From IMG/VR virus record IMGVR_UViG_3300042975_000096: a stretch of DNA of 64,000 nucleotides, one strand, 5' to 3'. This DNA is from a virus. Lineage: Duplodnaviria; Caudoviricetes. The notes beneath the pieces are model-generated. The model was not told the origin of the DNA. It ran no database searches and was given only the letters and a program-made list of their open reading frames with translations. The position numbers were made by a program, and so were the translations under genes. How positions within the stretch are numbered: position 1 is the stretch's first letter; each line of letters begins with the position of its first letter. Positions 44,924 through 52,318 of this stretch are shown here, in pieces.

Positions 44924-45060
44924 TTCAAAAGCCCCTTTTCTTTAACTCTTTTATTAACTCTATACATATAATAACACAACTTTAGTTCTTTGTCAATAGT
45001 TTTTTAAAAATATTTTATCTATATTTTTCAGACTATTATGAAACTATTTATAGGCAAAAT

Positions 45061-45078
45061 AAAAAGGGGTTTCCCCCT
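45061..45078 (-). terminator. terminator closing the CRISPR mini-array transcript
   Basis: AGGGGGAAACCCCTTTTT. Confidence 0.7.
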
Positions 45079-45125
45079 ATTTATTAAAGCCCGAAAACCT
45101 TTCCCCAATCAAGTGTAGCCACAGC

Positions 45126-45221
45126 ATTTCAATTCACGCACCCGTATGGGTGCGACTAATGCCTGAAATTAGATTGACTCTATATCAGGTATTTCAATTC
45201 ACGCACCCGTATGGGTGCGAC
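45126..45221 (-). CRISPR. type I-C CRISPR mini-array (two identical 31-nt repeats, 34-nt spacer)
   Basis: GTCGCACCCATACGGGTGCGTGAATTGAAAT at 45221-45191 and 45156-45126; spacer ACCTGATATAGAGTCAATCTAATTTCAGGCATTA; GTCGC..hairpin..ATTGAAAT is the I-C repeat type. Confidence 0.93.
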
Positions 45222-45421
45222 AGCACACATGCCAAAGCCTTGCTACGCAAGGGTTGAAATGGCACTTTGTGCGAACCCCTTAATATTTTACGAATTTCGT
45301 TGACACGCCCACATGAAAATGCGTATGAACCCTGTAAAACAAAGGGGTGCGAAGCACCTAGCGTTTTTCTGTTCACTTATGCTTCGCACTTATTATAACA
45401 TTATGTTTGTTATTTTGTCAA
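45222..45421 (-). promoter_or_regulatory. type I-C CRISPR leader with promoter
   Basis: GTGCGAAGCA-TAAGTGAACAGAAAAACGCTAGG-TGCTTCGCAC inverted repeat typical of Bacillota I-C leaders; TTGACA-18-TATAAT at 45421-45392. Confidence 0.8.
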
Positions 45422-45680
45422 GTGCTTTTTTTACATTCATTTTCAGACAATTATGAAATACTATAATAAGAATGTATTTTTTTCAAAGATAATTTTTTCT
45501 ACCTTCAATAACACTTTTTTGTGTTCCCATGTATATTTAATATGCTCTTTATTTTTAATCATATATACCTCCATTCCTTCTTGTAATTACCCACATTGGT
45601 TTTTATATCAATGTGGGTAAAACTTATATATATTATATTATAAATGCCCTCACAATTGATTTACCGGCTTTTGACAGATA

Positions 45681-50958: not shown

Positions 50959-51154
50959 CTGCTTTCCAAAACATAGACAAACATGGACATGTAAAATTTA
51001 TCCATATTTATATTAATGTCTAAATTTTTTAATTACTTTCGTCACCATTTGTATTCTGATATCAATTATTTAATACCACATTGACAAACTCTTAAAGTTT
51101 AAGGCGTAAGCCACGCCCTTTACTAATAAATGAATTAATTAATTAATTCATTTA
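50959..51154 (-). ncRNA. putative TnpB omegaRNA (reRNA) scaffold region
   Basis: Lies between the tnpB stop and the right end; hairpins include GGCGTGGCTTACGCC and a 38-bp perfect palindrome at 51122-51159. Confidence 0.55.
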
Positions 51155-52318
51155 TTAGTTAGCTAAAGCTAATAGATTCATTACTGCGTTATAATCTCTA
51201 TCTGCGGTGAACCCACACTTATAACATATATATTCATTATGTTTTGTTTTATGTCTTTTATTGCCTGACAAAGTGATTTTATCTTCACCTGTTTTTACAT
51301 GTCCACAACAAGAACATCTTTGAGTTGATGGGTAAAATCTATCAGCTATAATTAACTTTTTTCCATACCAATTACATTTATATGTAAGCAGTTGTCTAAA
51401 TAAACCAAAACACGACCTTTGCAAGCCTTTTGATGCTACATGTGTCATTTGCATATGTTTCACATCTAAATCTTCTATTACTATTGTATCATATTTATCT
51501 GTTAGCATAGTTGTGAATTTATGTAAAATATCATGGGTTAAGTTGCTTGCTTTTTCATAATCACGTTGAAGTTTGGTTCTCACTTTTAAGTAATTATTAC
51601 TCTTGCAAGCGTTTTTCCCTTTTATTATATGCTTTTTCGCTAACATTTTTTGATAATGTTTGATACGATTATAATAAAAGTTTAATTTCTTGGGTAAAAC
51701 ATTCAAATTACCATCAGTGTAATTAAAATGACCTACATTTACATCTATTGCTGTTTTTTTATTTGTTAAAACTTTTGTTTCAACACTGGTTTTATAAGGT
51801 AATGAAGCATAATATTTATTATTGACTTTAGTCACACTAACTACTGTTAAATCGGCATCAAAATTTTTTGGTAAACCTTTGATTTTAATATTTTGCCATT
51901 TTTCTTGAATTTCTCTAGGCTTATCTAATTTTAATTTACCATTTTTAATTGTAATTCTATCTGATTTGAAACCTTGTTTTGTATCTTTTTTGGTTTTGAA
52001 TTTAGGTTTTCCCCAATCAAGCTGAGATTTGCTTAAAAAATGATTCCAAGCATTTCCCAAATCTAAAATTGCTTGTTGTAAAATTCTTGAAGAATATTTA
52101 TATTGCCAATCTTGTTTATTTTCAACAAGTTCATTTCTTACAACACGTTCGTTAGGTGCTTTGTAAGATTTATCGATACAATGTAAATCATACATTTGAT
52201 TCCATGTTTCTAAACCTTGATTCCAACAATATCTGCGATAGTCGCAAAGATTATCTAAAACCTGTTTCATATGTTTGCTTGGATAAAGTTTTACTTTGAT
52301 GGTCTTTATTGTTTTCAA
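51155..52318 (-). CDS. tnpB: RNA-guided endonuclease TnpB
   Basis: KLYP..., R.CWN, PKFK, RuvC AIDVN / VIEDL / DRDYNA, YPSTQRCSCCG...C..CG Zn finger. Confidence 0.95.
   Translation of the reverse strand: MKTIKTIKVKLYPSKHMKQVLDNLCDYRRYCWNQGLETWNQMYDLHCIDKSYKAPNERVVRNELVENKQDWQYKYSSRILQQAILDLGNAWNHFLSKSQLDWGKPKFKTKKDTKQGFKSDRITIKNGKLKLDKPREIQEKWQNIKIKGLPKNFDADLTVVSVTKVNNKYYASLPYKTSVETKVLTNKKTAIDVNVGHFNYTDGNLNVLPKKLNFYYNRIKHYQKMLAKKHIIKGKNACKSNNYLKVRTKLQRDYEKASNLTHDILHKFTTMLTDKYDTIVIEDLDVKHMQMTHVASKGLQRSCFGLFRQLLTYKCNWYGKKLIIADRFYPSTQRCSCCGHVKTGEDKITLSGNKRHKTKHNEYICYKCGFTADRDYNAVMNLLALAN

Follow-up and report, generated by a model that had tools for sequence, protein, structure and literature searches.

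Introduction

It is already known that leader-bearing CRISPR arrays without cas genes occur in archaeal viruses and that Cas-less arrays occur in huge phages (PMC6858448, PMC7162821), and leaderless mini-arrays as well as lone repeats are found in phages according to the accounts in PMC6858448 and PMC11656645. The viruses SPV1 and SPV2 of Saccharolobus (Medvedeva et al. 2019, PMC6858448) carry arrays of one or two spacers with a host-like repeat, a promoter-bearing leader and no cas genes; their spacers vary between close relatives, stand-alone repeats are present in the same genomes, and the guides match related viruses, not the carrier. The phage mini-arrays of Faure et al. 2019, as summarized in PMC6858448 and PMC11656645, are also Cas-less, with one or two spacers that match adjacent genes of close relatives, and in the summary of PMC6858448 they are leaderless and are proposed to gain spacers by recombination with host arrays. 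The arrays of huge phages (Al-Shayeb et al. 2020, PMC7162821) have host-like repeats and no genes for adaptation or interference, and the use of host Cas proteins has been proposed for them. RacrIC1 (Camara-Wilpert et al. 2023, PMC10651486) is a viral type I-C repeat under a phage promoter, present as a solitary copy after a small ORF in an operon. Moreover, the viral Cracr arrays (bioRxiv 10.1101/2024.10.29.618823) are multi-unit arrays, with type I-C examples, that load host Cas proteins and whose spacers are conserved partial matches to the promoters of host cas or toxin genes. The prevailing view in reviews is that phage mini-arrays are leaderless and largely static, and that lone viral repeats are decoys.

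The locus described here shares with SPV1 and SPV2 the array, repeat and leader features listed above, and its terminal segments match genes of sibling strains, but it is a bacterial type I-C case in a huge tailed phage, its cassettes are dispersed and have an early promoter and a terminator, and its terminal guide-like segments derive from genes and are joined to the repeat in place, at the PAM boundary, a feature not described for SPV (PMC6858448). Like other mini-arrays, it lies in a virus genome, has a host-type repeat in one to three copies and is without cas genes in the window, by which we mean the whole 64-kb stretch of DNA analysed; unlike the mini-arrays of Faure et al. as summarized in PMC6858448 and PMC11656645, it has a verified leader and leader-proximal polymorphism. 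No leader, unit-by-unit polymorphism or PAM-precise joint between array and gene is described in the paper on huge-phage arrays (PMC7162821). In contrast to RacrIC1 (PMC10651486), there are a leader, full spacers and spacer turnover, and the solitary repeat copy interrupts a gene instead of following an acr gene. Compared with the Cracr arrays, Cas loading is putative here, and the spacers vary between strains, have full length and, wherever an origin could be traced, come from phage. What is new is the combination in one bacteriophage of a statistically verified bacterial type I-C leader, natural alleles differing by single leader-proximal units, and PAM-precise fusions of array and gene.

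Results

Genomic context of the array locus

The locus belongs to a huge phage of at least 430 kb whose source habitats are wastewater and sludge. A 430,772-bp contig (L055) bears it too, and its sequence was seen in wastewater or bioreactor-sludge runs from 14 studies. The minus strand is the coding strand of every gene in the window, the genes are arranged in short promoter-gene-terminator units, and the GC content is 25–33%. Recognizable genes encode an NAD-dependent ligase, a CCA-adding enzyme, TnpB with its RNA and PHROG families of unknown function; together with the many small promoter-terminator cassettes, the ligase, the CCA-adding enzyme and the PHROG matches place the arrays in a virus genome, and the region is an early, accessory part of the huge phage genome. 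No Acr family was found among the small ORFs around the array by PHROG and Pfam searches. The leader-repeat junction has no exact match in IMG/VR or in the JGI metagenome collection, the proteins flanking the cassettes have only distant relatives in IMG/VR, all without cassettes, and no record was found for a 301-aa protein adjoining the second cassette described below (cassette B).

The tnpB gene of this early region (51155-52318) encodes a protein with OrfB_IS605 and Cas12f1-like TNB domains and is adjoined by an Rfam Transposase-1 RNA, the two spanning 51042-52318; in L055, a gene for a 282-aa TnpB adjoins the neighbour gene of cassette B. In addition, an unrelated, GC-richer 57-kb IMG/VR contig (L001) carries a lone repeat of the same type I-C class (2149-2181) between two genes that lie on the opposite strand, and this is another candidate viral solitary repeat unit.

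Organization of the array cassette

The main cassette (45458-45064) and the other features discussed below are listed in Table 1. All elements named in the preliminary description, that is, palindrome, promoter, leader, repeat, 34-nt spacer, second repeat, further segment and terminator, were borne out, but that inventory had missed a third repeat and a second leader-bearing cassette. The further spacer-like segment it reported is indeed unique; however, it turned out to be a gene remnant fused in place and not an ordinary acquired spacer.

Copies of the palindrome (with up to 3 mismatches) number 29 within 33.9–62 kb, compared with 1.07 expected, and they typically precede the -35 hexamer of an early promoter by about 20 nt, with fixed spacing. 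One of them, at 45026-45043, precedes the promoter of the next cassette (family D3). A regulator of the phage or of the host probably binds to the palindrome. Repeats 1 and 2 are 65 nt apart, and the chance expectation for such a pair is zero, as none arose in shuffled sequence. In the predicted fold of the repeat, a stem of 7 bp precedes an 11-nt 3' tail or handle, and the geometry of this hairpin fits a Cas5c substrate of type I-C. The repeat conforms to the type I-C pattern of 31–33 nt with a GC-rich hairpin and an 11-nt 3' handle ending in the I-C consensus; the assignment of the repeat to type I-C rests on this fold and on repeats of the same class in 30 bacterial loci, which were retrieved with a degenerate repeat pattern. 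A terminator scan flagged the 3' arm of the leader's first hairpin, which is followed by a T-rich run (45346-45358), a possible attenuator within the leader. At gathering thresholds, Rfam gave only the TnpB-associated RNA and no CRISPR-DR match in the window.

Table 1. Array features in the window and alleles of the main array locus in sister strains
Feature	Position	Strand	Remarks
Imperfect palindrome, 18 nt	45441-45458	minus	About 19 nt upstream of the -35 hexamer
Sigma-70 promoter (TTGACA, 18 nt, TG-TATAAT)	45421-45392	minus	12/12 consensus positions plus extended -10 TG
CRISPR leader, ~165-170 nt	45391-45222	minus	Matched by host-leader profile
Repeat 1, leader-proximal, 31 nt, type I-C class	45221-45191	minus	
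Spacer S1, 34 nt	45190-45157	minus	Missing from the otherwise identical strain L035
Repeat 2, 31 nt	45156-45126	minus	Identical to repeat 1
Terminal guide-like segment S2	45125-45084	minus	3' end of a 59-aa phage gene
Intrinsic terminator hairpin	45078-45064	minus	Originally the terminator of the 59-aa gene
Solitary repeat	44012-43982	minus	Identical to repeats 1 and 2; inside a disrupted 93-aa gene
Paralogous cassette B	53955-53650	minus	Promoter, leader, one repeat, terminal segment, terminator
Repeat variant of cassette B, 32 nt	53755-53724	minus	Compensatory stem change
Allele of the window			L035-type joint in the 59-aa gene plus one extra leader-proximal spacer-repeat unit
Alleles of L035, L038, L045, L050			Single repeat fused inside the 59-aa gene, the next after the 274-aa gene
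Allele of L034			Single repeat fused near the 3' end of the 274-aa gene
Allele of L079			Joint 4 nt from the L034 joint
Alleles of L036, L037			Single variant repeat fused further upstream in the 274-aa gene
Allele of L046			Three repeats, two spacers, then the 274-aa gene intact
Allele of L051			Three repeats, two other spacers, last repeat fused inside the 274-aa gene

The leader and its bacterial counterparts

Among the bacterial loci, L026 has cas3, cas5d, csd1, cas7, cas4, cas1 and cas2 followed by a leader and an array of this class. When the leaders of 23 bacterial type I-C arrays were aligned with the phage leaders, a common block was found about 125–170 nt upstream of repeat 1 in Firmicutes, Actinobacteria, Bacteroidales and Endomicrobia, and both phage leaders hold this block directly after the predicted transcription start. 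Two smaller blocks nearer the repeat are common to the phage leaders and some of the hosts. Thus, the phage leaders have blocks in common with cas2-adjacent leaders of several phyla, and the conserved block in type I-C leaders across phyla is itself pointed out by this analysis. In itself the block forms an inverted repeat (L002-L031; 45331-45396 and 53866-53928 in the window) with a loop of about 27 nt that has a conserved centre, and its two arms are similar to the stem arms of the CRISPR repeat in swapped order.

An nhmmer profile was made from 16 bacterial type I-C leaders from which the repeat had been removed, and both strands of the window (128 kb) were searched with it. It matched 45396-45331 (E 1.2e-8) and 53928-53866 (E 4.9e-8), with no third significant match in the window, the next best having an E value of 3.8. 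Since the profile of host leaders matches only the two phage leaders, the phage leader is, as judged from its sequence, a genuine type I-C leader, and the comparison with the leaders of host arrays that had been recommended gave the expected match for both cassettes.

Strain alleles differ by whole repeat-spacer units

Sister-strain metagenome contigs were found by exact-protein look-ups with the genes flanking the cassette, and their flanks are 98–100% identical. Promoter and leader do not vary among these contigs, while the array locus has one, two or three repeats and five different internal spacers of 33–35 nt across the near-identical strains (Table 1). The window and L035 are 99.9% identical over 1079 nt upstream and 100% identical over 791 nt downstream and differ only by one leader-proximal unit. 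The growth by one unit that had been predicted is thus present in the form of alleles, as L035, L038, L045 and L050 have one repeat and the window has the same joint plus one unit; the length polymorphism that had been suggested as a check is likewise present, with one to three repeats at the main locus and one versus two at cassette B. This difference of entire units between sister strains makes it probable that host Cas proteins serve both to lengthen the arrays and to use them. Many contigs end inside the first repeat, which is as expected for several array versions in one sample.

Terminal segments are fused to the repeat at PAM boundaries

The terminal segment S2 comprises the last 13 codons and the stop of the 59-aa gene. 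This gene is intact in L034, L046 and L051 and is collinear with S2 through the stop codon and the terminator; in these intact alleles TTC stands directly before the S2 sequence, and repeat 2 is fused at the base after TTC. Compared with the target in L034, S2 of the window is mismatched at position 4 alone, and S2 of L040-L042 matches throughout. The same comparison was extended to every repeat-to-unique joint for which an uninterrupted allele was available. There are nine independent joints, five in the 274-aa gene and the rest in the 59-aa, 93-aa, 127-aa and acetyltransferase genes, and every one lies directly behind TTC (3/9) or TTT (6/9), with the PAM-proximal end meeting the 3' end of the repeat, which is the orientation expected of type I-C spacers. 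The background of these trinucleotides on the joint strand is 1.4% for TTC and 4.1% for TTT, so that P is 5e-12 for nine of nine joints behind TTC or TTT and 2e-4 for at least three behind TTC. It is known that TTC is the first and TTT the second PAM of type I-C for both acquisition and interference (PMC5602111), and that a prespacer is joined to the repeat-spacer site by its PAM end (bioRxiv 10.1101/2022.05.30.494039). In Legionella TTC accounts for about 90%, whereas at the phage joints TTT is commoner than TTC, a difference that counts against the explanation proposed below. The position of all nine joints nevertheless speaks for a sampling of the lineage's own DNA by host Cas4-Cas1-Cas2. 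Type I-C spacers are 33–37 nt long and taken beside TTC or TTT; the internal spacers here, of 33–35 nt, agree in length, and the PAM is based on the nine traceable joints. The search for a 5'-TTC PAM that had been advised was thus successful at the gene joints, but not for the internal spacers, which have no protospacers.

A 63-aa allele of the S2 target gene (L036:3620-3840, compared with L034:3661-3840) reads GTC instead of TTC and also differs at many of the first 16 positions of the S2 target; these changes are consistent with diversification under targeting.

Cassette B and the solitary repeat

The leader of cassette B is 88.5% identical to that of the main cassette. Cassette B sits in place of the middle of a 113-aa acetyltransferase gene, which is intact at this position in most strains, and its repeat joint lies behind TTC of the intact gene. 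Its alleles have one repeat in the window and in L060, and two repeats with a new spacer in L055. Compared with the window, L055 also has a 7-nt deletion between short direct repeats in the terminal segment of cassette B (L055:4165-4190), which changes guide positions 12-18.

The ORF upstream of the solitary repeat (44182-44033, 49 aa) is the N-terminal part of the interrupted 93-aa gene and is therefore not a dedicated acr gene. The right joint of this repeat lies behind TTT of the intact 93-aa allele, and at the left joint the 3' end of the repeat shares a microhomology of 6 nt with the gene. Furthermore, a 22-nt piece and the end of a further repeat were taken along at this site. The microhomology at the left joint and the co-copied piece with the repeat end point to array-templated repair. 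Half-site integration in cis was also considered as the origin of the joints and was set aside, because it does not account for cassette B or for the lone repeat, each of which has a further joint on its left side. In L040 and L041 (811-1008, corresponding to 44330-43930 in the window) the 93-aa gene is gone up to 18 nt into the fused site, so that the PAM of the lone-repeat site is deleted along with its initial 18 nt, which include the seed; this looks like escape from CRISPR targeting.

cas genes, spacer targets, host and expression

No cas homologue was detected in the 64-kb window by Pfam searches of the large ORFs or by tblastn with all ORFs of the 30 bacterial type I-C loci, as the preliminary description had stated for this stretch, and since an adjacent cas operon is missing in the window, the array is an orphan, Cas-less one and not a complete type I-C system. 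Spacer S1, the terminal segments and the spacers of L046, L051 and L055 have no protospacer in the window, in the loci compared or in the INPHARED phages, and in the PLSDB plasmids the repeat alone was matched. Pattern scans of IMG/VR were negative for S1 and for the second spacers of the L046 and L051 arrays, and a scan of the JGI metagenome collection gave no protospacer for S1. The proposed database comparison of both spacers thus left S1 without a target in the window and in the phage, plasmid, IMG/VR and JGI sets. The terminal segments match sibling genes with a PAM, while the internal spacers are without a match in the collections searched. Accordingly, the earlier idea of an anti-competitor system is supported only in part, by the terminal guide-like segments, which match sibling genes behind TTC or TTT, but not by the five internal spacers, which are without a known target.

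The host was to be identified through its repeat, but the exact repeat is absent from all 185,579 species genomes searched, and five candidate host genomes resemble the phage in the repeat alone. The expression data comprise four runs available as contigs, which cannot show transcription and in which gaps in coverage are uninformative. The summed contig depth over the leader is 40–60 times that of the flanks. Contigs from the RNA libraries cover leader-like sequence, for which DNA carry-over is possible and the leader is multi-copy; in one of them the leader is about 94% identical and runs into GC-richer sequence, and one contig of this ~94% leader type holds a GC-rich spacer between two identical repeats. 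The excess in leader depth and the ~94% leader contig suggest further copies, perhaps the host's own array.

Discussion

We consider it likely that the locus represents a type I-C mini-array which lacks cas genes but can still acquire spacers, and that it is one of several dispersed copies in the early accessory region of the phage. Its strong early promoter, to judge from the consensus match, would transcribe the leader and the array. Host Cas4-Cas1-Cas2 would recognize the bacterial-type leader and repeat and insert spacers at the leader-proximal repeat, as suggested by strain alleles that differ by whole units with unique spacers. The repeat hairpin may then be cleaved by a putative host Cas5c, and the guides are putatively used by host Cascade-Cas3. 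Some spacers would be taken from neighbouring genes of the lineage itself, at PAM-flanked (TTC or TTT) sites in a downstream gene of the phage's own genome or of a sibling's. Such a spacer and its protospacer make up a direct repeat of about 34 bp; recombination across it would delete the DNA in between and leave the CRISPR repeat joined, at the PAM boundary, to the gene, and the product, a leader, a repeat, a gene tail and a terminator, corresponds to the distal unit of the window. As far as the allele comparisons can tell, PAM-precise fusions account for both the terminal 'spacer' and the solitary repeats.

The fused tail has no PAM in the carrier, while the PAM is present in siblings that keep the gene, which makes the tail a candidate guide against them; later spacers such as S1 would be added in front of it. 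That it ends in a terminator and not in a repeat weakens the case for such a tail as a guide of type I-C Cascade, and so do the mismatch of the window's tail at position 4 to the known target alleles and the negative target searches for the internal spacers. L034 and L035 come from one sample, so carrier and target strains co-occur. Since the tails are PAM-less in the carrier and PAM-bearing in co-occurring siblings, a reading in which siblings are targeted fits the role in interviral conflict seen in SPV1 and SPV2, and the spacers of other phage mini-arrays match adjacent genes of relatives (Faure et al. 2019, as summarized in PMC6858448 and PMC11656645). The arrays are thus probably directed in part against sibling phages. 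As a tentative and rather doubtful extension, the cassette could be a CRISPR-guided homing element that is copied into siblings after damage by host Cascade-Cas3. In this view, the promoter-leader-repeat part is located precisely where the PAM of the cassette's own target site ends, from which it would follow that the terminal guide recognizes the uninterrupted sibling allele and not the carrier; repair of a damaged sibling allele from the carrier, with flanks about 99% identical, would copy the cassette in. Such behaviour would resemble that of the homing endonuclease genes of T-even phages, except that the element would borrow Cas proteins from the host and could acquire new targets by way of its leader.

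Four other explanations have to be weighed against the acquiring mini-array. The repeats could act as RNA decoys in the manner of Racr, mainly soaking up host Cas5c and Cas7 when highly expressed and so blocking type I-C immunity of the host, with spacers and leader being incidental. Solitary viral repeats do inhibit types I-C, I-E, I-F and V-A, RacrIC1 being an example (PMC10651486), and the consensus early promoter, the several cassette copies per genome and the solitary repeat in an operon (44012-43982) would suit such a function. However, a 165-nt leader with conservation to those of bacteria would be superfluous in a decoy, as would full-length spacers that turn over, and the solitary repeats resemble scars left by recombination at PAM sites; whereas a Racr is a solitary unit without leader or functional spacer, the cassette has a leader, two repeats and a full spacer. 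We regard a pure decoy as unlikely, but a decoy effect of abundant repeat RNA may well add to a targeting role, as the two are compatible. It is also improbable, in our judgement, that the arrays grow by homologous recombination with host arrays across the repeats and not by an integrase, the leader having originally been copied in the same way and host arrays with spacers from this phage supplying the PAM-flanked joints. This route has been proposed for leaderless phage mini-arrays, according to PMC6858448, and the same samples hold many contigs in which the repeat and a ~94% identical leader run into GC-richer DNA; but the promoter and leader are the same across strains and only the leader-proximal units differ, which is the polarity of integrase-mediated acquisition. 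Moreover, recombination would still require type I-C adaptation machinery that samples this phage, so that it shifts the place of acquisition and not the kind of system.

A role as regulatory crRNA-like RNAs, with spacers pairing partly with host cas or toxin promoters and lowering host immunity, has precedents in viral Cracr arrays, which include nine two-spacer type I-C arrays (bioRxiv 10.1101/2024.10.29.618823). The phage spacers, however, are full length and differ between near-identical strains, and this variation makes such a role very unlikely here; in addition, no PAM-plus-seed match of at least 10 nt was found in the 30 type I-C loci, a weak test, since these loci need not include that of the true host. 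Least probable is an inert relic of a captured piece of a host array. Expression and function of the array are predicted ones, which would suit a relic, but the paralogous cassettes number at least two and each of them carries a phage promoter of consensus type as well as a terminator, the repeat variants retain the stem via compensatory changes, and the locus shows active turnover and is widespread, with occurrences in 14 studies.

For the biology of these phages, the locus means that leader-bearing arrays exist in a bacteriophage and that strains in nature display their gain of spacers unit by unit. PAM-precise scars of recombination between spacer and protospacer would explain the lone repeats and the cassettes with one repeat, and this offers a testable route by which CRISPR units may spread within a virus genome and reshape its accessory genes. 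Furthermore, one repeat followed by a gene tail and a terminator may represent a natural compact guide design, the activity of which can be assayed.
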